In this document: in pieces, positions 3,745 to 59,961 of the stretch | How the letters are laid out: every line of letters begins with the position of its first letter | How positions within the stretch are numbered: the stretch's first letter is position 1 | Assembly: GCA_030037855.1 (NCBI GenBank) | Contig: JASHPY010000077.1 | Span: 2,035 to 66,034 of the forward strand | Source of the DNA: Thermoplasmata archaeon | Lineage (GTDB): Archaea > Thermoplasmatota > Thermoplasmata > Lutacidiplasmatales > UBA184 | DNA length: 64,000 bases | Direction: 5' to 3' | Program-made: the position numbers and the translations under genes | The notes under the pieces: generated by a model | Told to the model about the DNA's origin: nothing | The model's database searches: none | Seen by the model: only the letters and a program-made list of their open reading frames with translations

Positions 3745-3783
3745 GGTCCCCTTCGGTCGGCGGAGCGGGAGGGAGGACGAAGC

Positions 3784-4203: not shown

Positions 4204-6023
4204 GCCGGGCGGCCCGCGGCCGGCCCCTCCGTCGGAACGTCCTCGAGCGAGAGCAACCGGCCGACCGGATACTCTCCGATCCGCTGGGCGGCGAACCACG
4301 GGGACCGCTCGTAGAAGAAGTCGAGCCGGGCGCCCGGGTTCCCCGCGAACGCAGGGTCCTTCAGGCGCGACTCGAACTCGGTCTTCTGCGCGGGGTCGCT
4401 GGCGAGCGCCTTCGCCGCGAGCGGCTCGAGCACGTACGGCTCGGCGCCTTCCTTCTGCTCGAAGATCGCGTCGAAGAAGCCCCAGCGCAGCGCCGAGTCC
4501 GGGGCTTCGGGCTCGAGCCAGTGGATCGCCACCTTGGACAGACGCTGGTCGAGGGGGACCACCACGGGCCCTTCCGGGAACGTCATCGTCTCCACCGAAA
4601 GGACGCACGAACCGAACGCCCCGAACTCGCGCTCGACGTTGCCCCCGCGGAGGATCGGAAACCGCCCCTCGAACGGACGGCTCGGCCACCGCATGCCGGA
4701 GCACCGGTACCGCTCCACCCGGCCGGTCCACTCGGTGGTCGTCCGGCGCATCGCGACCCCGTGCGCCTCGAGGACGTCGACGACGCGGGTCCACGGTCGC
4801 GGGACGATGTACCCGCTCGGGGGACGGACCGTGACCGCGACCCGCGCCCGCGTCTCCATGGGTAGCCGGGTCGCGCGGGGCTCGCGCGAGTAGCGGACCG
4901 CGGTCGACCCCGAGGCCGCGCTCGGGTACCGATCGTACCCCACCCCCCGGAACGGGACCTCGGTCGTCTCCCCCGTCGACGCGACCACGAGCGGGAAGTC
5001 GGCCGCGCGGCCCGGTCGCGTGCCGAGGCGGCTCGCCGCTTCGTCCGCGTCCCGGTTGCGCGCCTTCAATGCCGGGGCCTCTCGATCCAGGATCTCGAGG
5101 AGCCCCCGGAGGACCTCGTAGTTCCCGCCCACCCGGGTCCGATAGTCCTTGAGCATGTGCATCTCGACCAGGAGCGCAGGTCGGTTCTCGAGGGTCACGT
5201 ACCCCGTCGAGAAGCGTGGCGGGTTCTCGTTGAACGCGAGTCCCTGCGCGGGGTCGGCATCGTCCCGGAGGAACACCGCCGCGGGGAACGCGAGATGCCC
5301 GCTCGCGTTCACGTGGCGTTCGATCCCGGGCGTGACGACCGACCGGACCCATTCCGCGGTCGCGGGGAAGACGTCGGGGGTCGCGTCGATCGCGAACGTG
5401 ACGTCGTACTCGAAGTCGGCTCCGTCGGTGACGTGGTCGTCCACGAAGAAATCCGGCATCCACCGGTGGAACAGCCGAAGGAACGCCCGGGTTTCGGGCG
5501 CGTCCGCCTTCAGGTAATCGCGGTTCAGGTTGAGATTGGTAGCGTTCGCGCGCCAGCCGGCGGGCTCGGGCCCGTTCTGGTTGATCCGGTGGAACCCCGA
5601 GCGGCGCTCGTGCCCGTCGACGTTGTAGATCGGGACGACGACGAGGACGACCCGCTCGAGTAGCTTCGCTCGCTCCTCCTTCCGCACGACGTCCCGCAGC
5701 AGCGCGAGACAGGCGTCCTTTCCGTCGGGCTCTCCCGAGTGGATGCAGTTCTGGACGAGGAGGACCGCCCGGCCCGAGGCGTGGACGGTGGCCGGGTCGA
5801 AGACCCCGTCCCGAGAGGCGACCACCGCGAGCAGCGGGCGGCCCTCCCCGCTCCGTCCGAAGCTCTCGAGCCGTATCCGGTCCGGATACGCGCGCGCCAG
5901 CCGCTCAAGGTACGCGACGGTCTCGGCGAAGGTCGGCGTCGTGCGATATCCGCTCCGCTCCGCCGGTGTGGCCCAGTCCGTCTCGGAGTCCGGGGCGTCT
6001 CGGACCGACTCGGGGGAACTCAT
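4200..6023 (-). CDS. M14 family zinc carboxypeptidase-like protein
   Basis: M14-like blocks: HSGEP, VVPIYNVDGHERR, NLNRDY. Start taken at the ATG (MSSPESV); the tool's GTG at 6083 is an alternative. Confidence 0.6.
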   Translation of the reverse strand: MSSPESVRDAPDSETDWATPAERSGYRTTPTFAETVAYLERLARAYPDRIRLESFGRSGEGRPLLAVVASRDGVFDPATVHASGRAVLLVQNCIHSGEPDGKDACLALLRDVVRKEERAKLLERVVLVVVPIYNVDGHERRSGFHRINQNGPEPAGWRANATNLNLNRDYLKADAPETRAFLRLFHRWMPDFFVDDHVTDGADFEYDVTFAIDATPDVFPATAEWVRSVVTPGIERHVNASGHLAFPAAVFLRDDADPAQGLAFNENPPRFSTGYVTLENRPALLVEMHMLKDYRTRVGGNYEVLRGLLEILDREAPALKARNRDADEAASRLGTRPGRAADFPLVVASTGETTEVPFRGVGYDRYPSAASGSTAVRYSREPRATRLPMETRARVAVTVRPPSGYIVPRPWTRVVDVLEAHGVAMRRTTTEWTGRVERYRCSGMRWPSRPFEGRFPILRGGNVEREFGAFGSCVLSVETMTFPEGPVVVPLDQRLSKVAIHWLEPEAPDSALRWGFFDAIFEQKEGAEPYVLEPLAAKALASDPAQKTEFESRLKDPAFAGNPGARLDFFYERSPWFAAQRIGEYPVGRLLSLEDVPTEGPAAGRPA

Positions 6024-6180
6024 GCTGCAGCGCTCCGACGGTCGCACGACCGGGTCGAACGGACAGCCGGTCGGGCTAATCACCCCTTACGAAGAGCGAT
6101 CGCCTCCGGGACCCCGCCGGCCCGAGGCGAACCGATCTCGATCGCGTTATCGGCCGTCGCGGTTCCGGGAGCGACCGGCG

Positions 6181-6843
6181 ATGGCGAAGGAGAGGAAGCG
6201 CTGCGCGTGGGCGCGTACCGACGACCCGGTGATGCGCGAGTACCACGACCGGGAGTGGGGAGTCCCCCAACACAGCGACCGTCGGCACTTCGAGTTCCTG
6301 ATCCTGGAGGGCGCTCAGGCGGGGCTCAGCTGGTCGACGATCCTCCACCGGCGCGCCGGCTACTCGAACGCGTTCGCCGGGTTCGACCCGGTCCGGGTGG
6401 CCCGATTCTCCCCGCGCCGAGTCGAGTCGCTGATGCGCGATTCGGGCATCATCCGAAACCGACGGAAGATCGAGTCCGCGGTGACGAACGCGAAGGCGTT
6501 CCTGAAGGTCGCGCGCGAGTTCGGCTCGTTCGACGCCTACTGCTGGCGGTTCGTGGGAGGGCGACCCCGGCAGAATCGCTGGGGGGCGGGCCGCCCGGTT
6601 CCGGCGACCACCGCGGAGTCGGACGCCTTCAGCCACGACCTGAAGTCGCGGGGCTTCCGCTTCGTCGGTTCGACGATCGTGTACGCACACATGCAGGCGG
6701 TCGGAATGGTGAACGACCACCTTCCGAGCTGCTTCCGGTACTCGGAGATCGGTCGCCGCGCCGGCCGGGAGATCGCCCCGCACCCCCGCTCTCGCCCGGT
6801 CGGGGGACCGGTGGCGGCGGCTAGAGACCGACGCGCAGCTTGA
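6181..6843 (+). CDS. tag: DNA-3-methyladenine glycosylase I
   Basis: Matches the Tag signature CAWARTDDPVMREYHDREWGVP...FEFLILEGAQAGLSWSTIL. Start at internal Met147 of ORF 5743..6843; the upstream part is non-coding-like. Confidence 0.85.
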   Translation: MAKERKRCAWARTDDPVMREYHDREWGVPQHSDRRHFEFLILEGAQAGLSWSTILHRRAGYSNAFAGFDPVRVARFSPRRVESLMRDSGIIRNRRKIESAVTNAKAFLKVAREFGSFDAYCWRFVGGRPRQNRWGAGRPVPATTAESDAFSHDLKSRGFRFVGSTIVYAHMQAVGMVNDHLPSCFRYSEIGRRAGREIAPHPRSRPVGGPVAAARDRRAA

Positions 6844-15141: not shown

Positions 15142-17718
15142 ATGTTCGCCACGCGCCGAATCGTGCTGGTGCTGGTCATCGCCGTTGCCGCGATCATGCT
15201 CGTGCCGTCCCCGGTGGCGGCCCGGACCGCTGGCGCACCGGGAGGCGCGGACGTGACGGCGGCCACGTCGACCGCCCCGGCCACCGCGGCATCCCACTCC
15301 GCGTCCCCTGCCGCAACTGCTCGAGCGGCCGAGGCCGCTGCGGCCGAGCAGCGGATGACCCGCGCGCTCGACAGCGCCGGCATCCCGGCGACCGAGCAAC
15401 TCCTTCCGAACCTCAATTCTCCGATCACGGTTCAGAACGGGCAGATCACTCCGAGCCCCACGACCGTGCCGTCGCCGATGGGGATCGCGGACTACGGGAT
15501 CCAGGACGAGGGTGGAGTGAACGTCGCGACCAACACCTACTACCAGAGCGTCGAAGGCAGCCTCACGATGAATCAGATCAGCCTCGCCTACCTCAACAGC
15601 GCGGGGCCGGACGAGTACTCGATCCAGCTCAACACGATCGCCTCGAACGTCACCCTGCTCGGGAACGCCGGCTACCAGATGTGGACGCAGAACGTGGTGT
15701 ACTACTTCCAGAGCACCCATTCGCTCCACCTGCTCGACGCGATCGTGAACTTCACGAACGTCGACTTCAACTTCACGCCGACGACCGTCATCGCCGGGAA
15801 CGGCTTCTACGACCCCGGATTCGGGTACTTCTACCCGTACGGGCCCGACCTCAACGTCCCGGAGCCGTTCACGATCAACTTCTACAACAACCTCACGGTC
15901 GTCGACGGCGACTCGGCGGTCTACTTCAACTACACGATCGACTCGCCGAACGGCTTCCAGTCGGGGTCCTACGACCTCGTCGTCTTCAACTCGCAACCGC
16001 TCACCGGACCACCGATCACCGCGGTCCAACCGCTCTACGAGATCGACGGCTTCCAGCTCAGCGGTACGGGGTACATCCCGCTCGACGCCGAGCTGATCCT
16101 GGGCGGGGACGGCGGCGGGTCGACCGCGTCGATCTTCAACATTGATGCCACGATGCGACTCTTCCTCGAGTCGCCCGGTGCCTCGACCTACCACTCGATC
16201 CCCGCGGCCTACAGCTTCGGCAGCGAGACCGGTGAGACGGTCGCCGGCATCGCGGAGTGGGCGTCCGGTGGGAAGGACCCGGAGGTGCACCTCGGCCCCG
16301 GGCCCGCCGACCTCGGACCGCTCTGGGGGGTCGTCGGAGCGCCGCCGTTGGGTCACGTCACGCAGACGATCCACGTCTCGCCCGCGAACGCGTTCGTCTT
16401 CGGGTCGGTCGGCGCGCCGTTCGACGCGGACACGTCCGCCTGGGGTCCCGTGCCGGCGTCCGGGACCGCCACCTACCTGCTGCCGCCGGGCACGTACAGC
16501 TACGACGTCCTGCTCAGCGACCACGCTCCGGTCGAGCGAACGCTCTCGGGCAATTCGGCGGTGACGGTCTCGCTCCGGACCGACCGCGCCCTCGGCGTCT
16601 ACACCCCGCTCTGGGCGTTCGGCAACTCGGAGCTCGCGGCGATCTCGCTGCCCGGGGGCACGGGCACGGAGTCGAACCCGTACATCCTCGACACCGGCGG
16701 GACCGGCGAGCTGAATCCGCTGTTCGGCCAGTTCAACGACTACGTCTTCCCGCAGTTCGCGGGGGTGTTCCTCGTGGGTACGACCGACTACGTCGCGGTC
16801 GACCACGCGCCGTCGTTCACGGTCCCCCTCTCGCTCAGCTGGGAGCTCCCGTACAACACGATCCTGCCCCCGACGAACCAGCTCCCGATCTGGTTCTACG
16901 GGACCGACCACGCGTCGCTGGTCAACTCGGCCGACATCGGTGGCTGGTGGTACTACGCGGACGTCGGCGAGTCCGAGGCGAACGTCGTCCTGTGGAACGC
17001 GACCCAGACCCTCGTCGGGGGGAACACGTTCGAGGACTCCGCGATCGCGCTCTTCACGTTCGGCGGTGGGGCGAACACGTTCTGGGGGAACGTCTTCGAG
17101 ACCTACGAGCCGCCGACGGCTCCGATCCCGGCGTACCTCCTGTACTACGGCGACCCGCTCGCGCTCGAGGAGTTCGAGTCGGGCGACCTGATCTACAACA
17201 ACGCATTCGCGACCCCGCAGACCGCCGAGAGCCCGGACTACAGCATCTACTCGTTCTACGGCGCGTACTCGCTCTGGGTCGACCAGTGGAACGTCGCGCC
17301 CCGGCCGGCCTACGTCCCCGAGTACGTGAACGGCTGGCGCCTCGCCGGGAGCATCCTCGGACTCGGATACGTCGCGGGCAACTATTGGTCGAACTACGGG
17401 ACCGCCGCGGACCCGTACGGAGTGCTGCCGTACAACAACAGCGGCGCGATCGACTTCGGCGGAGACTACCACCCGGTCGTGCCGTACGCGCTCTACACGG
17501 TCTCGTTCTTCGAGGTCGGGCTCCCGCACGGAACCGCGTGGTCGGTGACGATCGACGGGTACACGCAGACCACGACCGCCTCCGTGATCACGTTCGTGGA
17601 GCCAACCGGCGCGTACACCTTCACCGTTTCCACCGCCGGGACCGCGACGCCGCACCCGGCGAGCGGCACCGTGACCGTTCACCACCACCGGACCGGGGTC
17701 TTGGTGTTCTTCTCCTGA
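15142..17718 (+). CDS. thermopsin-like secreted peptidase (peptidase A5 family), 858 aa with C-terminal beta-rich extension
   Basis: Signal peptide MFATRRIVLVLVIAVAAIMLV. Thermopsin-like blocks recalled from Sulfolobus thermopsin (PMGIADYG, YSIQLNTIA, QMWTQNVVYY, LDAELILGGDGGGSTASIFN). Y/N/G/T-rich, with a His-rich C-terminus. Confidence 0.65.
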   Translation: MFATRRIVLVLVIAVAAIMLVPSPVAARTAGAPGGADVTAATSTAPATAASHSASPAATARAAEAAAAEQRMTRALDSAGIPATEQLLPNLNSPITVQNGQITPSPTTVPSPMGIADYGIQDEGGVNVATNTYYQSVEGSLTMNQISLAYLNSAGPDEYSIQLNTIASNVTLLGNAGYQMWTQNVVYYFQSTHSLHLLDAIVNFTNVDFNFTPTTVIAGNGFYDPGFGYFYPYGPDLNVPEPFTINFYNNLTVVDGDSAVYFNYTIDSPNGFQSGSYDLVVFNSQPLTGPPITAVQPLYEIDGFQLSGTGYIPLDAELILGGDGGGSTASIFNIDATMRLFLESPGASTYHSIPAAYSFGSETGETVAGIAEWASGGKDPEVHLGPGPADLGPLWGVVGAPPLGHVTQTIHVSPANAFVFGSVGAPFDADTSAWGPVPASGTATYLLPPGTYSYDVLLSDHAPVERTLSGNSAVTVSLRTDRALGVYTPLWAFGNSELAAISLPGGTGTESNPYILDTGGTGELNPLFGQFNDYVFPQFAGVFLVGTTDYVAVDHAPSFTVPLSLSWELPYNTILPPTNQLPIWFYGTDHASLVNSADIGGWWYYADVGESEANVVLWNATQTLVGGNTFEDSAIALFTFGGGANTFWGNVFETYEPPTAPIPAYLLYYGDPLALEEFESGDLIYNNAFATPQTAESPDYSIYSFYGAYSLWVDQWNVAPRPAYVPEYVNGWRLAGSILGLGYVAGNYWSNYGTAADPYGVLPYNNSGAIDFGGDYHPVVPYALYTVSFFEVGLPHGTAWSVTIDGYTQTTTASVITFVEPTGAYTFTVSTAGTATPHPASGTVTVHHHRTGVLVFFS

Positions 17719-26327: not shown

Positions 26328-28367
26328 TCACCCGGCGCGACTCCGTGCGCGCGCACGTCGGGTCGTCGGGCCAGTGGAGGAGTGACGGTGCGTCTCCAAT
26401 CGGGGGATCGTCCCGGTCGGAAGGCCGTACTCGCGAAGCAGCGCGACGAACCGGGGCTCGTCCCGAAGGCTATCGAAGAACACGCCGCGGTACCAGAGCC
26501 AGAGCGTCGGGTCCCCCTCGCGGAAGTCCTGCTCCAGGAGGTCGAGCGCCTTCGCCTTCTCGCCCATCGCGGCGTACATCATCGCCCGGTCCGTCGGCGA
26601 CGTGTAGGTCTTGGCCTCGCCCCTCGCGATCCGGGCGAGCATCTCGCGCGCCGCCGCGGGTCGACCGAGCAGCGCGTTCAGCAGCGCGTGGTCGAACCGA
26701 GCCCCGTCGTCGGCGTCGCCGAGGGGCGTGTCCGCCTCCCGCAGGGCGTCCGTTCGCCGACCGGCGCCGAGGTAGTACATCCCGACGTACACGTGGTACT
26801 CGACCTCCTTCGGATGGCGGTCGCGCTCCGCCTCCGCGAACCGGATCCCCTCGGCGAGATTTCCCGACTCGAACTCCGCCCACGCGAGCGTGGCCTGAAA
26901 GTGTCCTCGCGGGTCGAGCTGGGCGCCGTGGCGGAGAAGTTCCTTCGCCTGGTCGAACCGGCCGAGCGCGAACGTCATCAGGCCGTAGAACCGGTACGCC
27001 TCGACGTTGCTCGGGTTCAGCGCGATCGCCTTCTGGAACTCGCTCTCCGCGAGCGCCCAGTTGTGTTCGCTCTGGAACACGAGGTTCGCGAGCGCGGAGT
27101 GCGCCGACGAGGACTCGGGGTCGATCTCGAGCGCCCGCGCGATGAGCTTCCGTGCCTTCGGGACGACCTTGCGCATCGAGATGCTGTCCCCACCGGCCGC
27201 GATGTAGGCATTGGCGCAGGCCGCGTACGCCTCCGCGAACTCCGGGTCGAGACGGGTCGCCCGCTCGAAGCAGCGGACCGCCCGATCGAGTCCGTTCGGC
27301 AGCGACTCTCTCAGCATCGCGAGTCCGCGGAGATACAGGTCGTACGCCGCGAGGTTCGACGTCGGGGGACGTTTCGGCTGCGTTCCGTCCGTCGGTCGGA
27401 GCTCGAGGCGCAGGGCGTCCGCGGTGCGCTCGGCGATGTCGCTCTGCACCGCGAACACGTCGTCCAGCTCTCGATTGTAGCTCGTGGCCCAGACGTGCTG
27501 CTGGGTCGGTACGTCGACCAGCTGAAGGGTGATCCGGATCCGGTTCCCCGCCTTTCGCACGCTGCCCTCCAGCACGGTATCGACGCCGAGCTCCGCGCCG
27601 ACCTCGGCGACCGACTTCGGGGCGGTCTTGTACGGCATGACCGAGGTCCGCGCGATGACGCTCAATCCCCGGACGTGCGAGAGCACGCTGATCAGCTCCT
27701 CGGTGAGCCCATCGGCGAAGTAGCCGTCGCCCGGGTCGGGCGAGATATTGGCGAGGGGCAGGACGGCGAGCTGCCGGGCGCCGGACGGCTCGGACGGCGG
27801 TAGCACCGACGCCACGGAACTCCACGGGAGGACCACGCGGTAGATGGTCACGGGCATTCGGATGTGCTTCAACGCGACCGGCGGGAGCCGGGCGAGAGGC
27901 ATCGGGATCTTGTTCTGGACCTGGTCGACGACCTGCTGGCTGAGACAGATCCCGCCCGGCTCGGCGAGCGGTTGGATCCGCGAAGCGATGTTGACGGCAT
28001 CGCCGAGTACGTCGTCCCGGGTTTGCACGACGTCGCCCACGTGAACTCCGACGCGCACCCGGATCCGCTCGGCCTCCGGCACGGAGGTGCCGCCCTCGCG
28101 GAGCGAACGCTGGACTTCGATCGCGCAGCGGACCGCGTCGAGCGCGCTCTCGAACTCCACCAGGAACGCGTCGCCCATGGTCTTGACGACTCGACCGGCG
28201 AACCGCGAGAAGATCGGGCGGAGGAGACGGTTGTGCTGCTCGAGCGCGTGGAGGGCCGAACCCTCGTCGGCCTGGACGCGGGCGGCGTAGCCGACCACGT
28301 CCGTGAACATGATGGCGGCGAGGCGGCGGTGCGAAGTGCTCACGGGGCGGGGACGCGCCTCCGACAA
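26328..28367 (-). CDS. class III adenylate/guanylate cyclase domain protein with TolB-N-like middle region and C-terminal TPR repeats
   Basis: CHD core: LAAIMFTDVVGYA, VKTMGDAFLVEF, RVGVHVGDVV. A bacterial-type linker follows (LAVLPLANIS...GLTEELI), then several TPR units. Confidence 0.8.
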   Translation of the reverse strand: MSEARPRPVSTSHRRLAAIMFTDVVGYAARVQADEGSALHALEQHNRLLRPIFSRFAGRVVKTMGDAFLVEFESALDAVRCAIEVQRSLREGGTSVPEAERIRVRVGVHVGDVVQTRDDVLGDAVNIASRIQPLAEPGGICLSQQVVDQVQNKIPMPLARLPPVALKHIRMPVTIYRVVLPWSSVASVLPPSEPSGARQLAVLPLANISPDPGDGYFADGLTEELISVLSHVRGLSVIARTSVMPYKTAPKSVAEVGAELGVDTVLEGSVRKAGNRIRITLQLVDVPTQQHVWATSYNRELDDVFAVQSDIAERTADALRLELRPTDGTQPKRPPTSNLAAYDLYLRGLAMLRESLPNGLDRAVRCFERATRLDPEFAEAYAACANAYIAAGGDSISMRKVVPKARKLIARALEIDPESSSAHSALANLVFQSEHNWALAESEFQKAIALNPSNVEAYRFYGLMTFALGRFDQAKELLRHGAQLDPRGHFQATLAWAEFESGNLAEGIRFAEAERDRHPKEVEYHVYVGMYYLGAGRRTDALREADTPLGDADDGARFDHALLNALLGRPAAAREMLARIARGEAKTYTSPTDRAMMYAAMGEKAKALDLLEQDFREGDPTLWLWYRGVFFDSLRDEPRFVALLREYGLPTGTIPRLETHRHSSTGPTTRRARARSRAG

Positions 28368-36288: not shown

Positions 36289-37083
36289 ATGGCCGTGGCG
36301 AGCTCGACCTGCGCGAAGTGCGGGCAACCGTTACCGGCCGGGGCCGGCTTCTGCACGAACTGCGGGACTCCGGTCGCCGCCCCACTTTCGAGCGATGCCC
36401 CGCCGGTGCCGCCGCTCGACCTCGGGGCGACCGGCGGCCCGGCCGACCCGCCGCCTCCCACCGGTCCGCCGCTCGCCGCCGTGCTCGGGCTCGAGGGCTC
36501 CCGGAAGTTCCTCCTGCAGCACCTCCTCGTCGGGGCCCGCCACAGCTACCGGATCCTCGACGGGGAGAAGCGACCGATCTGCTCGTTCGGCGAGAACGTC
36601 CGCGCGGAGCGCGAAGCGCTCGTCCAGCAGATCTTCCACCCCGCGCCCAACGCGTCGTCCGGGAGCCGCGTCCAGGTCCACTGGGGCACTTCGGGGTTCT
36701 CCGAGACGTGGTTCTGGCTCGTCGAGGACGCCGGGGGGAACATTCGCGGCACGATCACGCTCCAGCAGTCGGGGCCCCGGGGCCGGGCGACCGTGGTCGA
36801 CCCGACCGGCGCGCCCGTGCTCGCGGTGCAGACGCACCGGTCCGGCTTCGAGACGCTCGAGGCGAGCGCGTCCGCGCCGGACGGGCGGCCGACCCTCGAG
36901 GCCCGCGGGAAGCTCCTCCATCATGAGTTCGGTATCTTCGCTCCCGGCGGCGCGGAGGTCGCCAAGGTCCACGAAGCCTGGGCGTCGGTCCGGGACACCT
37001 ACGCCGTCGACCTGCTCGGCCCGACCGACCCGCTCGCGGTGCTCGTCCTCGCGGTCCTGATCGACCACTTCAAAGGGCGCTAG
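36289..37083 (+). CDS. zinc-ribbon + LURP-one-related/scramblase-like (tubby-fold) domain protein
   Basis: N-terminal CAKCG...CTNCG zinc ribbon and Pro-rich linker. C-terminal blocks YRILDGEKRPICSF...VLAVLIDHF resemble the PLSCR/LOR family. Confidence 0.5.
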   Translation: MAVASSTCAKCGQPLPAGAGFCTNCGTPVAAPLSSDAPPVPPLDLGATGGPADPPPPTGPPLAAVLGLEGSRKFLLQHLLVGARHSYRILDGEKRPICSFGENVRAEREALVQQIFHPAPNASSGSRVQVHWGTSGFSETWFWLVEDAGGNIRGTITLQQSGPRGRATVVDPTGAPVLAVQTHRSGFETLEASASAPDGRPTLEARGKLLHHEFGIFAPGGAEVAKVHEAWASVRDTYAVDLLGPTDPLAVLVLAVLIDHFKGR

Positions 37084-37160
37084 CCTCGCGCGCCGGCGAC
37101 CCGCGGACCGACCCTGGTCAGAGGGTCAGGTCTTTATCCCGAGGCTGGTTCCCGAGCGCC

Positions 37161-37601
37161 GTGGCCCCGGCGTCCCGCGAGGAGATCGGCGCGATCGTCG
37201 CGGGCCTGAAGCGCTCGGCGCTGTTGGGCGGGCTCAAGGACCGCGAGCTGAAGCGGCTCGCGGGGCTCGCCAAGGTACGCACTATCGACAAGGGCGCGAC
37301 CGTGGTGAAGCGCGGGGAGAAGGGGATCGGCTTCTACGTGATCCTCGACGGCGCGGTCCAGGTACGCAAGGACGGGAGGCCGGTAGCGGGCCTCGGACCG
37401 GGGGACTTCTTCGGCGAGCTCGCCCTGTTCGACGACCGACCCCGCTCGGCCGACGTCGTCACCACCGATCGGACGACCGTGGTCGTCCTCTCGCGGTGGG
37501 AGTTCTGGGGGTTCGCCTCGGAGCGGCCCGAGATGCTCCGGGCGATCCTCGCGGAGATGGCCCGGCGCCTCGAAGAGACCGGACGCATCGGCGGGCACTG
37601 A
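37161..37601 (+). CDS. cyclic nucleotide-binding (CAP_ED) domain protein, stand-alone
   Basis: cNMP-binding signature GDFFGELALF plus the conserved Arg (RSADVV). The 146-aa protein has no output domain. Confidence 0.8.
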   Translation: MAPASREEIGAIVAGLKRSALLGGLKDRELKRLAGLAKVRTIDKGATVVKRGEKGIGFYVILDGAVQVRKDGRPVAGLGPGDFFGELALFDDRPRSADVVTTDRTTVVVLSRWEFWGFASERPEMLRAILAEMARRLEETGRIGGH

Positions 37602-37724: not shown

Positions 37725-38204
37725 TCAGCGCAGGATCTCGACCGTGATGATCCAGGCCTCGACGACGGCGATCAGGAATCCGCCGAGGGTGGCGGGGACG
37801 AACCAGTACAGCGCGCCGGTGCTGTTGGTCAGGAGGGCGATGCCTCCCAAGAGGACGAGCACCCACGGGAGCTGGATCTCGACCGTGTGGTTCCGTAGGA
37901 CCGCCCGGAACCTCGGCTCGACCTCCCGCCAGCTGCGCCGCTCGAGAAGGTTCAGCGCGAGGCCGGTCGCGATCGCGATCCCGGCGACCGACACCCCCTG
38001 GACGAAGGGCGACGGCCCGGGCACGAGGAGCAGCGACTCGATGCCGAGGAGGCTGAGGAGGACCAGGAGCGACTGCAGCGCCCGGTTCGCCACCATCGGG
38101 AGCTGGACGATCCGCTGGAGGTTGATCGAGATCCCGACGAAGATCAGCCCCGCGAGCGCGGCGGCGGCGCCGACCTCGGCGGTGAAGAAATTGTCCCAGC
38201 TCAA
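37725..38204 (-). CDS. hypothetical membrane protein (4 TMS)
   Basis: Four hydrophobic helices. Clean ORF. Confidence 0.5.
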   Translation of the reverse strand: MSWDNFFTAEVGAAAALAGLIFVGISINLQRIVQLPMVANRALQSLLVLLSLLGIESLLLVPGPSPFVQGVSVAGIAIATGLALNLLERRSWREVEPRFRAVLRNHTVEIQLPWVLVLLGGIALLTNSTGALYWFVPATLGGFLIAVVEAWIITVEILR

Positions 38205-47504: not shown

Positions 47505-48527
47505 TCAGGCACGCGAGAGGCCGAGCGCGCGGTCCGTCCTCGCGATCGAAGCGGGCCCGTCGGGTGCGAGGTCGAACATCGCCCGGATCGCGTCGACGTT
47601 CTCGGGGACCGTCACCGACTCCTGGTGGATCGCCTGGAAGAAATAGGCGTCCCGTCCCTCGAGGCTCACCCCGTCCTCCCAGACGACGTTCTCGGGCACG
47701 TCGTCGAGACCGAGCCCGCGGCCCCGGGCGAACTCCATCACCTGCGGCGTTCCGTTCGCCTGCTCCCACGGCGCGAAGACGCGGAACCGGGGCGTGGAGC
47801 GGAGCGCCGCGACGAGCTCGGCGGCGCTCGCTGGCGCCGACCGCAGGCGAACGTGATTGACGTGCACGTGCATCAGGGTCGTGGGCACGACGACCGCGAC
47901 GGTCGAGATCTCGAGATCGGGGAAGATCGTTCGGACGTCCGGCCCGTGATGGGACGGGATGTGGAGCGACGGCACGATGCCGTTGATCGGCCCCTTCTTC
48001 GACTCGGCGGGGTCGGCCGCCCGTCGCACGAGCGTGACGTCCCAGCGCTCGACGCCCCACCGGGGGAGGAGGACCGCGACGGCCCGCGAGATGCCGGTGG
48101 TGTTGCAGGAGACGACCCGCACGCGGCGTTTCCCGCGCGCGGCCGCGTAGTTCCCGAGCGCGTTGAAGGAGACGTCGGCGACCGACGCCTTCTCTCCTCC
48201 CTGAAAGACGGCCCGGACGTTCGCGGCATCGTAGAGCGCACGGTTCTCCGCCCCGACTTTGTCCGGCGTCGCGTCCACGACCACGTCCGCGCGCGCGACC
48301 ATCTCCTTCACCGTCCCGGCGACCTGGAGCCCCGCCGCGTCGAAGTCGGACCGTACCGCGTCGGCGGCCAGATAGAGCGGATAGCCGAGGTCGACCGCGC
48401 GACGCGCGTCGAAGCTCGGGCGGGTCTTCGCCACCCCGACGAGCTCGAGGTCCGGCTGCTTCGCGACCGCGTCCGCTACGCGCTTGCCGATCGTCCCGTA
48501 GCCGTTGACCGCCACGCGAACCCGCAC
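47505..48527 (-). CDS. gap: archaeal type II glyceraldehyde-3-phosphate dehydrogenase
   Basis: VAVNGYGTIGKRVADA N-terminus and catalytic SCNTTG. About 340 aa. Confidence 0.9.
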   Translation of the reverse strand: MRVRVAVNGYGTIGKRVADAVAKQPDLELVGVAKTRPSFDARRAVDLGYPLYLAADAVRSDFDAAGLQVAGTVKEMVARADVVVDATPDKVGAENRALYDAANVRAVFQGGEKASVADVSFNALGNYAAARGKRRVRVVSCNTTGISRAVAVLLPRWGVERWDVTLVRRAADPAESKKGPINGIVPSLHIPSHHGPDVRTIFPDLEISTVAVVVPTTLMHVHVNHVRLRSAPASAAELVAALRSTPRFRVFAPWEQANGTPQVMEFARGRGLGLDDVPENVVWEDGVSLEGRDAYFFQAIHQESVTVPENVDAIRAMFDLAPDGPASIARTDRALGLSRA

Positions 48528-48642
48528 GACGACCGAGCCTCGGCCGCTCCGAGCGGCGGCCGGGATAAAGGCGTTCCTCGGGCGCGGTCCGGACGCGGGG
48601 CACTATCCTTAATCCCCGCGCCGCCGTCGCCGCGGGACCCCC

Positions 48643-52860: not shown

Positions 52861-53949
52861 CTATCCCGGGGTCGCGGGCTCGACCGACGCCCGCGCGGCG
52901 AGGCCCTTGAAGTACTGCTGCAGGACCCCGGCGCCGATCACGAGACCGAGGCCCGCCACCAGGAGGCCGATGAACAGCGGCAGCCGGGTCGACGAGGCGA
53001 CCCCCTGAAGGTACTCGACCAGGAGGACGATCCCGAAGCTGACGAAGCCGATCCCGATGATCGAGGTCGTCGCGACCGCGAACGAACGGGGGAATCGGCC
53101 GCGCGAGAGCGTCCGACGGATCGCCCGCCCGCACTCCCAGACGACCGCGCCGATGAGCCACCAGAGGATGGCGGCCTGGAGGAAGAACAGGAACCGGTCG
53201 AGCGGGCCCGACGGGCTCGTGGCGTAGCCGTTGTAACCGGAGAGGAAGCCGACGCCGACCAGCGCGATCGCGAAGAGGCCGAAGCCGAACGCGACCGACC
53301 CCTGGCGGATGTCGGTCGAGGCGCCGCGGATCGACTCGATGATCGCCTCGTCGACGTCGAACGTCCAGAAGATCAGATAGACGCCGAGCACGACCGCGAG
53401 CCCGATCACCCCCCAGATCACGACGTTCGCCGCGGCCGCGATCCCGAGGATGAGGAGGACGAGCGCGATCGGGAGCACGGTCTTCGCGCGGAGCTTCGGG
53501 TCCTTGAGCGCCCGGACGACCGTGTAGTACGTCGACTCGATCGATGCGCTCTGCCGCACGTAGACGCGACGGACGCCGTCGACCTTGACCCGCGACGCGA
53601 GGATCGGGAACAGGAACTCGTCCTCGGCCCCGTCGCTGACGAGATACGCCGACTTCGCGCCGGTCCGCCCGAGGACCGCATCGAACTGGTCGGCGACCCT
53701 CCGGTCGGAGACGACACCGACCTTCGGCGAGCCGGTGAGGACGCAGACCTCCCACTCCTCCCCCGTCCCCCGGAGCTCGTCCAGGAGGTTCACCGCGGCG
53801 AACAGCGCGTTCGTGTCCGAGTCCTCGGGGTCGGACGTGCCGAGACGCACCGCCGCGTCGAGGACGTTCGCGCGTCCGACGACCGGGCCGGCAACCGACG
53901 CTTTCCGGCCGAGATCGTCGTCGCGGTCGATGCAGACGACGAGCCGCAT
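52861..53949 (-). CDS. DUF373 family archaeal membrane protein
   Basis: MRLVVCIDRDDDLGRKA N-terminus typical of DUF373, plus 6 C-terminal TMS. Start at an internal Met of ORF 52861..54588. Confidence 0.65.
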   Translation of the reverse strand: MRLVVCIDRDDDLGRKASVAGPVVGRANVLDAAVRLGTSDPEDSDTNALFAAVNLLDELRGTGEEWEVCVLTGSPKVGVVSDRRVADQFDAVLGRTGAKSAYLVSDGAEDEFLFPILASRVKVDGVRRVYVRQSASIESTYYTVVRALKDPKLRAKTVLPIALVLLILGIAAAANVVIWGVIGLAVVLGVYLIFWTFDVDEAIIESIRGASTDIRQGSVAFGFGLFAIALVGVGFLSGYNGYATSPSGPLDRFLFFLQAAILWWLIGAVVWECGRAIRRTLSRGRFPRSFAVATTSIIGIGFVSFGIVLLVEYLQGVASSTRLPLFIGLLVAGLGLVIGAGVLQQYFKGLAARASVEPATPG

Positions 53950-54081
53950 GGCCGGCGAAGTATGCCCCGCGGGGAGCATAATGGCTCGTCTCGTTCCGGG
54001 GCCCCGCGACGAACGACCCCCCGTCCGCGCGGTGCCGCCGGTGACGCTTTTAGGTGGGGGAGGCCCCTCTCCCGCCGAACG

Positions 54082-55509
54082 ATGACCGACCTCCCCGACA
54101 AGACGACCGCGTTCATGGACTGGTACCTCGCGGTCGTCGAGGCCGCGAACCTCACCGACAAGCGCTACCCGGTGAAGGGGCTGAACGTCTGGACCGCCTA
54201 CGGTTTCCGGGCGCGACGGAACCTGGACGCCGTGCTCGTGCGGGAGATCGAGGCGACCGGTTCCGAGGCGGTCGAGTTCCCGGCGCTGATCCCGGCAACC
54301 GAGTTCGCGAAGGAGAAGGAGCACATCAAGGGGTTCGATGCCGAGGTCTACTGGGTCACGAAGGGTGGCCTGTCGGACCTCGATGTTCCGCTCGTGCTCC
54401 GGCCCACGAGCGAGACCGCGATGTACCCGGTGTTCGCGCTGTGGATCCGTTCGCACCGGGACCTGCCGCTCAACGTCTACCAGATCGTCAACTCGTTCCG
54501 CTACGAGACGAAGACGACCCGCCCGTTCGTCCGCGTTCGGGAGATCCACTTCTTCGAAGAGCACACGTGCCAGGCGAACGAGGCGCACGCGACCGAGCGC
54601 GTGCGCTCGAACCTCGGGGCGTTCCGCAAGATGGCCGACGCGTTCGCCCTACCGTACCTCGCGATCCGCCGGCCCGACTGGGACAAGTTTCCCGGCGCGT
54701 TCTACACGGTCGCGCTCGACAGCCCCCTCGGCGGGGCGCGCACGCTCCAGCTCGGAAGCATCCATCACTACCGCGAGAACTTCTCGCGGCCGTACGCGAT
54801 CCAGTACGAGGCGGCCGACGGAAGCCAGCAGTTCGTCCACCAGACGACGTTCGGCCTCTCCGAGCGGCTGCTCGGCGCGATCGTCGCGGTCCACGGGGAC
54901 GCGAAGGGCGCGGTCTTCTCGAGCGCGATCGCCCCCTACCAGGTCGTCGTGATCCCGATCCTCGGGAGCGACGTCGGGGAGGCGCCGCTCCGGGTCGCCG
55001 AGGACGTCGCAGCGCGGCTCCGCCGTCACGGATACCGCGCCCATCTGGACGCCGGCGACGACCGCCCCGGCGCGAAGTTCTACCGTTGGGAGCAGGCCGG
55101 CGTTCCGCTGCGGCTCGAGGTCGGGCGGCGGGAGGCCGAGGCGCGGAGCGCGACGTCCGTGGATCGGCTCGGAACGAAGGGGCGCGTGGCGCTCGACCGG
55201 CTCGAGGGAGAGGTAGCGGACCGGCTCGCGGAGTTCGACCGCGCGCTGCGCGCGCGGGCGGACGCCGCGTTCGCCGCGTCGTTCTCGGTCGCCCGTTCGC
55301 TCGCCGAGCTCGCGGGCTCGACCCGCGTCCGGATCGTCGCGTGGTGCGGCAGCGAGGCGTGCGGCCATCAGATCGAGAGCGGGATCGATGGAGCGCTCCT
55401 CGGCACGCCCGAGGATGCGCTGCCGATCGATCCCGGAGCGCCCGGACCGTGCATCGGCTGCGGCGGGACCGAATCGACCCGTTGGGCGCTCGCGGGCCAG
55501 CCGCTCTGA
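54082..55509 (+). CDS. proS: proline--tRNA ligase, archaeal/eukaryotic type
   Basis: Class II aaRS motifs. N-terminus FMDWYLAVVEAANLTDKRYPVKG and C-terminal zinc-binding CGSEACGH...CIGCGG. Start at Met41 of ORF 53962..55509. Confidence 0.9.
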   Translation: MTDLPDKTTAFMDWYLAVVEAANLTDKRYPVKGLNVWTAYGFRARRNLDAVLVREIEATGSEAVEFPALIPATEFAKEKEHIKGFDAEVYWVTKGGLSDLDVPLVLRPTSETAMYPVFALWIRSHRDLPLNVYQIVNSFRYETKTTRPFVRVREIHFFEEHTCQANEAHATERVRSNLGAFRKMADAFALPYLAIRRPDWDKFPGAFYTVALDSPLGGARTLQLGSIHHYRENFSRPYAIQYEAADGSQQFVHQTTFGLSERLLGAIVAVHGDAKGAVFSSAIAPYQVVVIPILGSDVGEAPLRVAEDVAARLRRHGYRAHLDAGDDRPGAKFYRWEQAGVPLRLEVGRREAEARSATSVDRLGTKGRVALDRLEGEVADRLAEFDRALRARADAAFAASFSVARSLAELAGSTRVRIVAWCGSEACGHQIESGIDGALLGTPEDALPIDPGAPGPCIGCGGTESTRWALAGQPL

Positions 55510-55911: not shown

Positions 55912-57492
55912 ATGCCGGAGGCGCCCGTCCCCGAGGAGCCGAAGCGGGAGGACACCTCCCGCTTCGAGCGGCTTTCGCCCGACCAGCACCGCATCCTCGC
56001 CTACGCGAGCTCGATCGGTTCCGAGTTCGATTTCCCGCTCCTGGCGAACGCGATGGGGGTGGAGGAGGAGTGGCTCGCGGAGCATCTCGAGCGCCTCGTC
56101 CATCTCGGGGTGCTGCGCGAGCGGACCGGCGGCGACCGGTTCGCGTTCGCCACGGAGGAGTTCCGAGCGCGGGTCTATCGCTCGCTGACCGAGAGCCGTC
56201 TGCGGGTACTGCACCGGAAGATCGCGGAAGCGATGCAGCGAATGTACCCCACCGCCCCGGCCGAGGTCGTCGCCGAGCTCGGACGTCACTACTTCCTCGG
56301 AAAGGTCCCCGAGAAGTCCCGCCTGTACAACCGGCTCGCCTCCGAGAACGCCCGAGCGGCCGACGACCCGGAGTCGGCCGTACACTATCTCGAACGGGTC
56401 CGCGTCGACCTCGAGTCGATCCCCGGGGACCACCGCCACGAGCTCGCGGAGATCGACGAGGCGCTCGGCGAGCTCTGCTTCTCGACCGGAAACTTCGCCG
56501 AGGCGGACCGGTACTTCACCGCGGCGCTCGAGCGCCTCGGCAGCGACGAGCCACGGATCCGGGGCCGCTTACTGCTCGCGCGCGGCGAGGTCGCCCGGGA
56601 GAAGCTCGACGTCGAGAGCGCGACCCGCCAGGCGCTCGACGCCCAGCGCCTGTTCGAGGCGACCGACGACCGACTGGGGCGCGCGCAGACCTACCGGCTC
56701 CTCGGCCGGGTCGCGTTCCACCGCGGCCACTACCGCGAGGCGCTCGACGAGAGCATGCGCTCCCTCGACGCGCTCGGGGACCTCCGCGACCCCCGCCTGA
56801 TCGGCGAGCTGTCGATCGACATCGGGAACTCGTTCGCGCTGCTCGGGCCCGAGGTCAACCAGGAGGCGATCGCGTGGTACGAGCGGGCGATCGACCGGTT
56901 GACCCAGGCCGGCGAATGGGTCGAGCTCTCGCGCGCCTACCACAATCTCGGGGTCTCGCTCGGCGAGCGACGGCCGGAGGACGGGCTCGAGCAGCTCGAG
57001 CGCGCCCGGGAGATGGGGGACCGCGCGCACGACCCCCGGTCGGTCGGCCGGGCGCTCCTCTCGGGCGTGGAGTTCCGGCTCGGCCTCGGCCAGTTCGAGG
57101 AGGCGGCGCGGGACAACGAGCAGGCCGGCCGGCTCCTGGAGCGGCTCGACGACGTCCTCGGTCTCGAACAGGTCGAGGTGAACCGGGGCCAGATCGCGGA
57201 GAAGCGGGGCCAGTGGGACGACGCCGAGCGGGCGTACGAGAAGGCGCTGGCGGCGTGCCACCGGTTCCACCTGCGCGCCGACGAGGCGGAGGTCCACTAC
57301 TACCTCGCCCGGCTCCGGTTCAAGACCCGAAACCTGGAGGCGGCCCGCCACGAGCTCAGGGCCGCCGACAACCTCGACCTCACCGACCTACGTCCCGCAC
57401 TGGCCCCCCAGGTCGCGGAGCTGCGACGCCAGCTCGAGGAGCAGGTCGCGCCCGGTGCGTCCGGCCCCGCGGAGCCCGCCCCGCCGTCCTAA
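55912..57492 (+). CDS. TPR-repeat protein (NTPase-less paralogue of the downstream STAND protein)
   Basis: N-terminal winged-helix-like block LSPDQHRILAYASSIGSEFDFPLLA, then more than 8 TPR-like units. It parallels the C-terminal half of the next gene. Confidence 0.65.
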   Translation: MPEAPVPEEPKREDTSRFERLSPDQHRILAYASSIGSEFDFPLLANAMGVEEEWLAEHLERLVHLGVLRERTGGDRFAFATEEFRARVYRSLTESRLRVLHRKIAEAMQRMYPTAPAEVVAELGRHYFLGKVPEKSRLYNRLASENARAADDPESAVHYLERVRVDLESIPGDHRHELAEIDEALGELCFSTGNFAEADRYFTAALERLGSDEPRIRGRLLLARGEVAREKLDVESATRQALDAQRLFEATDDRLGRAQTYRLLGRVAFHRGHYREALDESMRSLDALGDLRDPRLIGELSIDIGNSFALLGPEVNQEAIAWYERAIDRLTQAGEWVELSRAYHNLGVSLGERRPEDGLEQLERAREMGDRAHDPRSVGRALLSGVEFRLGLGQFEEAARDNEQAGRLLERLDDVLGLEQVEVNRGQIAEKRGQWDDAERAYEKALAACHRFHLRADEAEVHYYLARLRFKTRNLEAARHELRAADNLDLTDLRPALAPQVAELRRQLEEQVAPGASGPAEPAPPS

Positions 57493-57537: not shown

Positions 57538-59961
57538 ATGTCCGGGTCCGATCCATCGCGGGGGGCGGCCGTGCCTCCGATATTCGGGCGGGGCGAGGCG
57601 GTGATCGAGGTCGGGCGCACGCTCGACCGCGCCCGCGCGGGAGCGGGTGAGGGGCTCCTCCTGTCGGGAGACGACGGGGCCGGGAAGAGCCTGTTCCTTC
57701 GGACGGCGGCCCAGCGCGCCCGCCACCAGGGTTTCCGGGTACTGATCGGCCGGGCCCTCCCCGAGGAGATCCCGCAGCCGTTCTCGCTGCTGCGCGACCT
57801 CGTGCGCCCATCCGATCGGTCCTCCCGCGGCGAGCGCTCGGGCGCCGGCCCTCCGGTGTCGCTCCCCGGATTCCTGCTGACCGTGGACGGCGAAGCCGGG
57901 GGCGGGACCCGCCCGCCCGCCGACGCCGGCGAGCCGACCCCGGTGTCCGAGGGTCTCGCGACCATGCTCGCGCCGATGGACAGCCCCGGTGACTGGGTCG
58001 GAACGGTCCGTCAAGAGCTCTACGCGAACCTCGTGCAGTACCTCGCCGAACGCGCGGTCGACGAGCCGCTTTTGGTCGCGATCGACGACCTCCACTTCGC
58101 GGACGCGGCGTCGATCGAGTTCCTCAGCCGGCTCGCCACCGAGCTCGGCCACCTTCCGATCGCGATGGTCGCGACCGTGGCGACCGGCACGCGGATTCCT
58201 GCCGGGGTCCGCGAGCTCATCGAGTCGCTCGCCCGCTCGACCACGGTGCGCACGGTGGCGCTCCGGCCGCTGAGCGCGGCGGAGGTGGCGGAGTTCGCGA
58301 AGTGGGTCCGTCGGGGGATCCCGGCCGATGCGGCCGACGTGCTCCGCTGGCACGCCCAGACCGACGGGAACCCGCTCTTCGTCGAGCAGCTCGTCCGCTC
58401 GACCACGGGGGTCGGGACCCGGCCCGAGCTCGAGACGACCGGCGGCACCGCGGGCCTCCACGAGATCCTCCTCGCGCGGGTCCGCGCGCTCGGCGAGACG
58501 GAGCGGCGGACCCTGACCTACGCCGCGCTCCTCGGGAAGGAGTTCGCCTTCTCGAACCTGGCCGCGATCTCCGAGATGGACGAGGAGCGTGTGACCGAGA
58601 CGCTCGACCGCCTGGTCGCGGGCGGCCTCCTACGGGAGAAGGGGGACGAGGTCTTGGAGTTCGTGACGGAGGGCGTGCGGGCCGGGGTCTACGCCGAGCT
58701 CACCGAGACCCGTCGCCGGATCCTCCATCGGCGCGTCGGGCGGTCGCTCGAGGAGAAGCGCCTCGCCGGCGACTCCGAACTCGCGCGCCAGTTCTACCTT
58801 GGCCGCGACGACGCGAAGGCAGCCGAGTACAACCTCCGGGCCGGCACGAGCGCGATGCGCGGGTTCGCGTTCGAGACCGCCGTGCCGCACCTCGAGCGGG
58901 CGCTCGAGGCGGAGCGGCGGCGATCCGACCGGAGCCCCGCCCGCGAGGTCCGGATCCTCGTCGACCTGGGCCGGTCGTTCGACGAGCTCGGCGACCTCCA
59001 CCGGTCGGAGGTCGCGCTCTCGGACGCGGTCCTGCTCGCGCGGACCCGACCCGAGCTCGACCCCGAGCTCGGTCGGGCGCTCCTCGCCCTGGCCCAGACC
59101 CGCCAGGACCAGAGCGAGTACCCGAGCGCGCAGGCGCTCGCCGAGGAGGCCTACGGCCGGCTCGAACGGGGCGGCGCGCCCCGCGAGCTGATGACCGCCC
59201 ACCGCGTCCTCGGGATCGTCGGCTGGCGACTCGGCCGCCTCGCGGACGCCGAGCGGCACCTTCGGCTCGCGCTCGAGATCGCCGAGAACGAAGGCACCGC
59301 GGTCGAGCGAGGGCACGCGATGGTGGACGTCGCGAACACGATGCTGCTCCGAGACGGGGCGCAGTTCGGTCAGGCGCTCGATCTCTACGAGCGGGCGGCC
59401 GAGCTGTTCGGCTCCGGGCAGGACCTCGCCGCGCGGGCGCGCGTGCTGATGAACCGGGCGGTGCTGCTCTACTCCTCGGGACGCCGTGAGGACGGCCTCG
59501 CGGGATTGGACCTCGCGATCGACGCCGCGGAGCGGTCGCGCTCGCCGGTCTGGATCGGCTACTGCTACCTCAACCTCGCGCTCATGCAGGCGGAGCTCGG
59601 GAACCCGGAACGGGCCCGGCCGGCGCTCGAGCGCGCCGACGGGCTCCTCACCCCCCTCGGGGACCGGCTCGCGCCCGAGCAGCTCGCGCTCGCGCGCGGG
59701 CTGCTCGCCGAGGCCGAGCGCGACTACGACCGGGCCGAGGGTCACCTCGCGGACGCGCTCCACCAGGCTCGGGAGCTGAACGCGGAGCCCGAGGTCTCGG
59801 AGATCCTCTTTCGGCTCGCCCACGTGGCCCTCGCCCGCGGCGACCGGGCCGGGGCCCGCGCGAAGCTCGCCCAGGCCCGGGCCGCCGGGCTCGACGCGAA
59901 CCGCAGCGACCTCGCCACGCGGGTCGCCGAGCTCGATTCGGCGCTCGCGAAGCCGGATTGA
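57538..59961 (+). CDS. STAND-type P-loop NTPase (AAA_16-like) with winged-helix and TPR repeats
   Basis: Walker A GDDGAGKS and Walker B LLVAIDDLHFAD. WH block TLTYAALLGKEFAFSNLAAI. C-terminal TPR array. Confidence 0.75.
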   Translation: MSGSDPSRGAAVPPIFGRGEAVIEVGRTLDRARAGAGEGLLLSGDDGAGKSLFLRTAAQRARHQGFRVLIGRALPEEIPQPFSLLRDLVRPSDRSSRGERSGAGPPVSLPGFLLTVDGEAGGGTRPPADAGEPTPVSEGLATMLAPMDSPGDWVGTVRQELYANLVQYLAERAVDEPLLVAIDDLHFADAASIEFLSRLATELGHLPIAMVATVATGTRIPAGVRELIESLARSTTVRTVALRPLSAAEVAEFAKWVRRGIPADAADVLRWHAQTDGNPLFVEQLVRSTTGVGTRPELETTGGTAGLHEILLARVRALGETERRTLTYAALLGKEFAFSNLAAISEMDEERVTETLDRLVAGGLLREKGDEVLEFVTEGVRAGVYAELTETRRRILHRRVGRSLEEKRLAGDSELARQFYLGRDDAKAAEYNLRAGTSAMRGFAFETAVPHLERALEAERRRSDRSPAREVRILVDLGRSFDELGDLHRSEVALSDAVLLARTRPELDPELGRALLALAQTRQDQSEYPSAQALAEEAYGRLERGGAPRELMTAHRVLGIVGWRLGRLADAERHLRLALEIAENEGTAVERGHAMVDVANTMLLRDGAQFGQALDLYERAAELFGSGQDLAARARVLMNRAVLLYSSGRREDGLAGLDLAIDAAERSRSPVWIGYCYLNLALMQAELGNPERARPALERADGLLTPLGDRLAPEQLALARGLLAEAERDYDRAEGHLADALHQARELNAEPEVSEILFRLAHVALARGDRAGARAKLAQARAAGLDANRSDLATRVAELDSALAKPD

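Follow-up and report, generated by a model that had tools for sequence, protein, structure and literature searches.

Can a protein that consists of a single cyclic nucleotide-binding (CNB) domain serve as a receptor for cAMP in an archaeon? The question is raised by a 64,000-nucleotide stretch of DNA (the window), in which one uncultured Thermoplasmata genome encodes both halves of a plausible cAMP pathway, namely a cyclase and a small soluble candidate receptor. cAMP has been detected in archaea, with no protein making, degrading or binding it characterised according to a 2023 review (PMC10249747), and a census from 2005 concluded that archaea lack class III cyclases (PMC1183210). In the literature searched, we came across neither a characterised CNB protein from archaea nor a clear case of a characterised single-CNB protein from bacteria, and Kannan et al. 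2007 state nothing on archaea or on stand-alone CNB proteins. As a molecule, the CNB protein of the window is of no new kind: proteins of the same domain-only build are widespread in bacteria, and the archaeal homologues are already listed in databases as 'cyclic nucleotide-binding domain-containing'. It looks easy to express, and together with the cyclase it makes a concrete pair for biochemistry. The positions of both genes and of the elements discussed below are collected in Table 1.

Table 1. Features of the CNB gene, its surroundings and the predicted cyclase (nucleotide positions in the window)
Feature	Position	Strand	Basis or remark
CNB-protein gene	37161..37601	+	146 aa, GTG start, stop codon included
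TATA-box-like element GTCTTTATCCC	37130..37140	+	-31 to -21 relative to the start codon
Two-helix N-terminal segment, residues 6-36, counterpart of the N3A motif	37176..37268	+	AF2 and conservation
Phosphate-binding cassette, residues 81-98	37401..37454	+	GDFFGELALFDDRPRSAD
B and C helices, residues 112-144: hinge/lid, possible dimer helix	37494..37592	+	AF2, conservation, CRP alignment
Zn-ribbon protein gene, 264 aa, co-directional upstream neighbour	36289..37083	+	ORF
Gene for 159-aa protein with several hydrophobic segments	37725..38204	-	no Pfam match; convergent to the CNB gene
Predicted class III adenylate cyclase, 679 aa: catalytic domain, TolB-like region, TPR	26328..28367	-	PF00211, 58.7 bits; TPR families

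The CNB protein and its family

The 146-aa protein is one complete CNB domain and nothing else, and it is real and well conserved. Its reading frame has a GC3 of 0.94 in a window of 70.9% GC, which is typical of real genes in the window, and contains no in-frame start upstream of 37161 in the open frame, which opens at 36927. The Pfam search identified PF00027 (cNMP_binding) at residues 40-119 with 68.6 bits (cut-off 27.5; E=4.5e-19) and no second domain beside it. NCBIfam returned only partial, sub-threshold matches to CRP, Pat and encapsulin-2B by way of the common domain; the CRP model matched over its positions 12-134 of 214 and scored 48.3 bits against an equivalog cut-off of 266. The first-pass annotation had described a single-domain cyclic nucleotide-binding protein without an effector domain, carrying the canonical cassette GDFFGELALF...RSADVV. 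Both descriptions hold, since PF00027 is the sole Pfam domain here as in the homologues, and the cassette was located at residues 81-98 as G81-D-F-F-G-E86-L-A-L-F-D-D-R-P-R95-S-A-D98. Membership of the CNB superfamily is supported by the Pfam score above threshold, by the predicted beta-roll with its flanking helices and by the cassette pattern G-E-x-A-x(n)-R-[ST]-A. The window contains no other CNB-encoding ORF.

A homologue search with the CNB protein gave 161 matches, and in all 120 of them that were listed PF00027 is the only domain. Exactly 146 aa were found in 66 of these 120 and nearly all are 141-147 aa long; a longer or fused true reading frame in relatives, named beforehand as an outcome that would speak against a stand-alone protein, was absent among them. 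Where organism names are given, they read 'Thermoplasmata archaeon' MAG in every case but one. We also searched 1.84 billion protein-cluster representatives exhaustively with phmmer, which found the CNB in 48,705 clusters. Every single-domain match of at least 41% identity was 144-165 aa long, and the long top-scoring matches owed their score to summation over many tandem CNB repeats of about 30-38% identity each.

The family alignment comprised 121 sequences, in all of which G81, F84, G85, E86, R95, A97, D98 and F115 are identical. Loss of the cassette Glu or Arg was the other outcome named in advance, and it was not observed: Glu86 and Arg95 are present in 121 of 121 sequences. S96 and W113 are each kept in 119 of 121, R136 in 120 of 120, and position 140 is Thr or Ser in 97 of 120. 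The family also has a conserved N-terminal pattern, 'k.ivagl..s.ll.gL.dr.lkrlA'. The N-terminal helices and the WEFWGF motif lie outside the pocket and yet are at least 90% conserved, and conservation reaching so far beyond the pocket suggests a constrained interaction surface. Pairwise comparison of the gene with seven orthologues resulted in dN/dS values of 0.21-0.46, at dS of 0.7-1.2 where synonymous sites are near saturation, indicating purifying selection on the CNB gene.

The AF2 model obtained from the family alignment (pLDDT 83.7, pTM 0.78) has helices at residues 6-17 and 27-36, an eight-stranded roll, a cassette helix at 86-89 and the B (112-119) and C (123-144) helices. The predicted fold is that of a complete CNB module with N-terminal helices, eight-stranded beta-roll, cassette and B/C helices, and the B/C region bears the family signature SRWEFWGF as well as R136 and T140. 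Comparison of the model with the PDB by Foldseek gave TM scores of 0.77-0.84 to solved CNB domains overall, among them the PycTIR CNB (8jsk, 0.84), the HCN CNBD (3u11, 0.83), the cAMP-bound PfPKA-R CNB (5k8s, 0.82) and the MlotiK1 CNBD (about 0.8); mycobacterial/corynebacterial CRP/GlxR gave 0.73-0.79. The regulatory CNB domains of PKA/PKG (PfPKA-R 5k8s, RI-alpha CNB-B) are top structural matches with TM scores of 0.77-0.82 and also the strongest profile matches, and they provide the model of a module that signals by binding or releasing another protein. Whereas they are tandem and fused to docking/inhibitor segments or to a kinase, the CNB protein has one domain and no inhibitor sequence. We rejected its classification as a PKA-type regulatory subunit because the tandem CNB and the docking/inhibitor segments are absent.

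A profile search of PDB sequences found the Thermus Crp-family regulator 4ev0 as the best single-domain match (85.6 bits), and BLASTP aligned the CNB protein with E. coli CRP over 121 residues at 31% identity (E=1e-13). The likeness to CRP covers the fold, the cassette, which aligns to G71/E72 and R82/S83, and the B/C helices, which are almost collinear with those of CRP ('EMARRLEET' versus 'QMARRLQVT'). E86 is thereby paired with E72, R95 with R82, S96 with S83, R136 with R123 and T140 with T127, CRP residues whose roles are known from established structural work. Crp/Fnr regulators go on into a DNA-binding domain after the hinge, and the CNB protein ends six residues past the equivalent of T127. 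Since it ends at the hinge and has no winged helix, it cannot be a transcription factor alone. Classification as a Crp/Fnr transcription factor was rejected for lack of the C-terminal winged helix and on the low score against the CRP equivalog model. Judged from the alignment, the CNB protein resembles a CRP reduced to its core for cAMP binding and dimerisation, with the DNA-binding domain missing.

Promoter, neighbouring genes and cyclases

The upstream sequence implies that the CNB gene has a promoter of its own and a probably leaderless or near-leaderless mRNA, and that it is an independent, probably monocistronic unit. The exact TATA-like motif listed in Table 1 occurs a single time in the window. 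When the 70 nt 5' of the start codon were aligned for 13 Thermoplasmata loci, the conserved element GGTCT(A/T)TA(A/T)CCCG emerged, and an AT-rich 6-mer (A or T at 5 or more of its positions) begins at -30 to -28 in 12 of the 13 loci, against a background of 0.2-3% per position for such 6-mers in the same loci. The box is present whatever the upstream gene is; at one locus (L091) that gene stops only 12 nt away. In archaea, the TATA box is usually spaced about 26 nt from the transcription start. With this spacing, the position of the box places the transcription start at or beside the start codon, which is thereby confirmed. At the other end of the gene, a GC hairpin does follow the stop codon as had been noticed, at -26 kcal/mol. 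It does not rise above chance, because dinucleotide shuffles had a mean of -26.6 (z=0.24) and 120 of 200 folded at least as well, and we rejected the hairpin as a terminator on this ground. The archaeal-type GAPDH gene (47505-48527, - strand) is preceded at a distance of about 40 nt by a second TATA-like box, GCCTTTATCCC (48562-48572, - strand); the spacing exceeds that at the CNB gene, which points to a short leader or to a start codon further upstream.

The neighbours of the CNB gene were compared using gene tables at nine orthologous places. At L001/L002 and L091, the gene lies between DHDPS upstream and adenine glycosylase downstream; at L005 its neighbour is a pyridine-nucleotide oxidoreductase, and at L090 HD_4. 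DUF885, Zn-ribbon/LOR, 159-aa membrane and OB-fold genes recur near the CNB gene in the closest relatives only, and at L008 and L089 the CNB and membrane genes are separated by an inserted HTH gene and MFS transporter. Recurrence limited to close relatives, with insertions, indicates residual synteny and not functional coupling. The convergent membrane-protein gene pointed out in the first-pass annotation is present as described, and, being kept in close relatives only, carries no information on function. When the ORFs flanking the CNB gene on up to 3.5 kb were clustered for 56 loci, no family was common to the Thermoplasmata loci, and a conserved operon partner was rejected, as the 13 Thermoplasmata loci have no common neighbour gene.

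Several minor observations concern these neighbours. The upstream Zn-ribbon protein has an N-terminal zinc ribbon and a region related to LURP-one-related (LOR, PF04525), according to the precomputed matches of its homologues. Of the 13 Thermoplasmata loci, 3 have a homologue of it close to the CNB gene (L007, 5096-5872, and L003, 1867-2838, among them), which is too few for linkage. The HD_4 gene that follows the CNB gene at L090, a more divergent orthologous locus, is of the RelA/SpoT-type HD hydrolase kind. Usp genes were found within about 5-7 kb of the CNB gene in two loci; these HD_4 and Usp observations concern L090, 10820-11419 and 5255-5683, and L008, 16973-17410. USP domains can bind cAMP in mycobacteria.

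The adenylate cyclase that had been noted at 9 kb is indeed present, at 8.8 kb from the CNB gene. Its position is not kept in orthologous loci and does not bear on function. In a tblastn search of all loci with the cyclase catalytic domain, the window and L010, there at the edge, were the only archaeal ones with a cyclase in the flank, and at L008 the position syntenic with the window cyclase is occupied by a COX1 gene; the proximity of about 9 kb is thus no evidence of linkage. Provided that cyclase paralogues are numerous, chance would roughly account for a cyclase within 10 kb in these two places only. Three of the four earlier context clues, namely cyclase proximity, membrane neighbour and hairpin, are uninformative on function. 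The pairing of the CNB homologue P0017 with the cyclase homologue P0200 on one 17,746-bp contig was also rejected, as the two come from different contigs and different samples.

By its sequence, the window cyclase is predicted to be a canonical class III adenylate cyclase. It has the two Asp residues that bind metal, the Lys-Asp pair for the substrate and the Asn and Arg of the transition-state motif, and these six catalytic residues are kept in 118-121 of 121 sequences (the window cyclase and the 120 homologues listed); the middle region is TolB-like by JGI annotation. According to the accepted rules for class III enzymes, these residues predict that the product is cAMP and not cGMP. The window cyclase has more than 6,600 matches among database proteins, and the best of them, where named, belong to Thermoplasmata, Nitrososphaerales or Thaumarchaeota MAGs. 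Such numerous archaeal class III cyclases are at odds with the view of the older census. Two cyclase paralogues can share one 7-kb stretch: on the Thermoplasmata-like contig L092 they are found at 3001-4194 and from 6907 on, with an RHH + PIN toxin-antitoxin pair between them (6115-6803). The window cyclase is the likely source of the ligand in the organism, without a genetic link to the CNB gene. The Lys-Asp pair of the cyclase and the CRP-like Thr140 of the CNB protein together point to cAMP as the ligand of the latter, an assignment that we regard as likely on these sequence features. The Ser following the cassette Arg does not separate cAMP from cGMP binders, as is evident from CRP, MlotiK1 and PKG.

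Scanning GTDB, with each species represented by one genome, for relatives of the CNB protein revealed four Thermoplasmata loci, two Nitrososphaerales/Nitrososphaerota loci and many bacterial ones at 32-45% identity. Most of the bacterial CNB genes end at most 10 codons past the domain and are hence also stand-alone, which makes the domain-only architecture common, not unusual; about 20 bacterial genes have a Crp-type C-terminal extension of 76-100 residues. At 15 Chloroflexota/Limnocylindria loci, a stand-alone CNB gene is followed after a gap of 5-30 bp by a gene of about 920 aa encoding Guanylate_cyc, AAA and TPR regions, apparently as a conserved two-gene unit. These bacterial CNB proteins resemble the archaeal ones in length (about 140 aa) and sequence (37-45% identity) and form a neighbouring clade in a crude tree. 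Whereas their genes share an operon with a homologue of class III cyclases, the archaeal CNB genes are monocistronic and have no conserved neighbour, and a CNB gene immediately upstream of Guanylate_cyc-AAA-TPR is absent from the window and from all Thermoplasmata/Nitrososphaerales loci examined. In the tree (NJ, Kimura distance), which with bootstrap values of 23-64% gives a hint only, the archaeal CNB proteins group together beside the clade with the linked cyclase, and the HTH-bearing proteins stand apart from them. The cyclase operon at 15 bacterial loci ties the stand-alone clade to cyclic nucleotide signalling, and by analogy suggests multi-domain TPR cyclases as one class of partner for stand-alone CNB proteins.

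The pair was seen at L019, L020, L022, L027, L028, L032, L033, L035, L038, L044, L046, L056, L057 and L087, with a CNB gene of about 140 aa at about 6001-6400, the next gene from about 6410 and an AAA/STAND ATPase in the partner; the set also includes L088, where the cyclase domain is about 1.8 kb away on the downstream side of the CNB gene. In L028, the one copy inspected, the cyclase domain has Gly at the usual position of the substrate Lys (GTEGD). The window itself encodes, on the + strand, a 526-aa TPR protein (55912-57492) followed by an 807-aa protein with AAA_16 and MalT-like TPR (57538-59961, STAND-type), both of a signalling type. We considered the latter as kin of the Chloroflexota cyclase-AAA-TPR proteins and rejected it, as the two are unrelated in sequence.

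Candidate mechanism and competing explanations

We consider it probable, if only modestly so, that the CNB gene is expressed and kept by selection, and that its product is a single-domain receptor of a 3',5'-cyclic nucleotide, with cAMP as the most likely one, whose output is exerted through protein contacts. On its sequence, the protein qualifies well as a candidate receptor of cAMP in an archaeon, and we infer cAMP and not cGMP as the ligand, a CRP-like dimer through the C helix and a protein-protein output. The class III cyclases of the lineage would make cAMP, which would be bound at its ribose-phosphate via Glu86, Arg95 and Ser96, with Arg136 and Thr140, the C helix lying over the base, as probable further contacts. 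Binding would shift the N-terminal and B/C helices, and the altered surface, including the WEFWGF patch, would bind or release a partner protein whose gene lies in another part of the genome, in a way akin to the action of the PKA regulatory subunit on its catalytic subunit. CbpA of Pseudomonas aeruginosa is reported (Endoh and Engel 2009) to carry an additional, degenerate CNB-like domain at its N terminus and to be located at the cell pole. It can be likened to the CNB protein by description only, both being of a cAMP-binding type that is not a transcription factor. One report describes CbpA as a cAMP effector and not a DNA-binding regulator (PMC11139211).

A receptor is favoured over a pure binder by the conserved surfaces outside the pocket, that is, the N-terminal helices and SRWEFWGF on helix B. 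The same data would also fit, without any partner, a sponge or buffer that tunes the free cAMP pool, so that action through protein-protein interaction, which the first-pass annotation took to be required of a single-domain receptor, has an alternative. The domain-only build, the lack of a conserved neighbour, the strong-looking promoter of its own and the many cyclase homologues in the lineage (more than 6,600 matches, the named ones from Thermoplasmata and Nitrososphaerales MAGs) agree with such a role. There is a precedent in Rv1636/MSMEG_3811 of mycobacteria, a single-domain cAMP binder without an effector domain that was proposed to sequester the nucleotide (PMC11107214). That protein has a USP fold and not a CNB fold, which makes it an analogue by logic only, and a conservation of at least 90% in the N-terminal helices and WEFWGF goes beyond the need of a pure binder; we hold a buffering role to be unlikely. 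We give the same low probability to a feedback subunit, in which the cAMP-loaded CNB protein would dock on the TPR region of class III cyclases and modulate their activity. It is suggested by the 15 Chloroflexota/Limnocylindria loci, by the place of their cyclase-linked clade next to the archaeal one and away from the HTH-bearing CRPs, and by the TPRs that the window cyclase has as well. However, no Thermoplasmata or Nitrososphaerales locus has such an adjacency, the archaeal cyclases differ in architecture (TolB-like and TPR, no AAA), the bootstrap values of the tree are as low as stated, and the AAA+TPR protein of the window is not related to the Chloroflexota one.

A ligand other than cAMP is less probable still, be it cGMP, a pyrimidine cyclic nucleotide as in Pycsar, or a non-nucleotide as in some Crp/Fnr relatives. 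The CNB fold accommodates varied ligands, PADLOC models of PycTIR match residues 30-140 (1.3e-19), and the PycTIR CNB is among the top structural matches. Yet this match spans only the common CNB half (profile positions 30-141 of 288-306), and the CNB protein differs from PycTIR, the anti-phage effector with which it has the CNB domain in common, in lacking a TIR, membrane or other effector and an adjacent PycC. With the nearest cyclase 8.8 kb away and equipped with the adenylate-cyclase Lys-Asp pair, we rejected a Pycsar effector. The invariant Glu and Arg that contact the ribose-phosphate, the Thr equivalent to T127 of CRP and the lineage cyclases with their adenine-specifying Lys-Asp pair also argue against another ligand. 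Very improbable, finally, is a decaying or dominant-negative Crp/Fnr remnant that has lost its DNA-binding domain, which the Crp-family regulators among the best single-domain sequence matches and the collinearity with CRP as far as the hinge could suggest. A constant length across about 120 diverged homologues, purifying selection and a conserved promoter stand against decay; moreover, no full-length Crp relative occurs among the close homologues, and the HTH-bearing relatives form a separate group.

The reading as a single-domain cAMP receptor acting through protein contacts can be extended to the whole family, although we regard this extension as rather doubtful. The family would then be the output arm of a bacterial-type cAMP pathway acquired by soil Thermoplasmata and also by Nitrososphaerales, in which a minimal CRP-like dimer would sense the cAMP from the expanded family of TPR cyclases and act purely by docking, possibly on the cyclase TPRs themselves as a feedback subunit. 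If this were true, it would be the first defined cAMP receptor in Archaea, and the many domain-only CNB proteins of bacteria that are uncharacterised would gain a working model.

Other genes in the window

No tRNA gene was found in the window, and its protein-coding genes agree with the archaeal host assumed in the first-pass annotation. Archaeal-type genes include Thermopsin, Spt4/RpoE'', DUF373, DUF359, archaeal-type GAPDH and an archaeal pilin N-terminal domain, and the CNB homologues named 'Thermoplasmata archaeon' bear out the same host. The called DUF373 ORF and a class II aminoacyl-tRNA synthetase gene (52861-54588, - strand, and 53962-55509, + strand) overlap by about 600 nt; the DUF373 Pfam match starts from residue 215, so that the true start probably lies well inside the called ORF, past its first start codon. 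The thermopsin-family protein (archaeal acid protease; 15142-17718, + strand) is 858 aa long, compared with 256 positions for the Pfam domain, and presumably has extra C-terminal regions.
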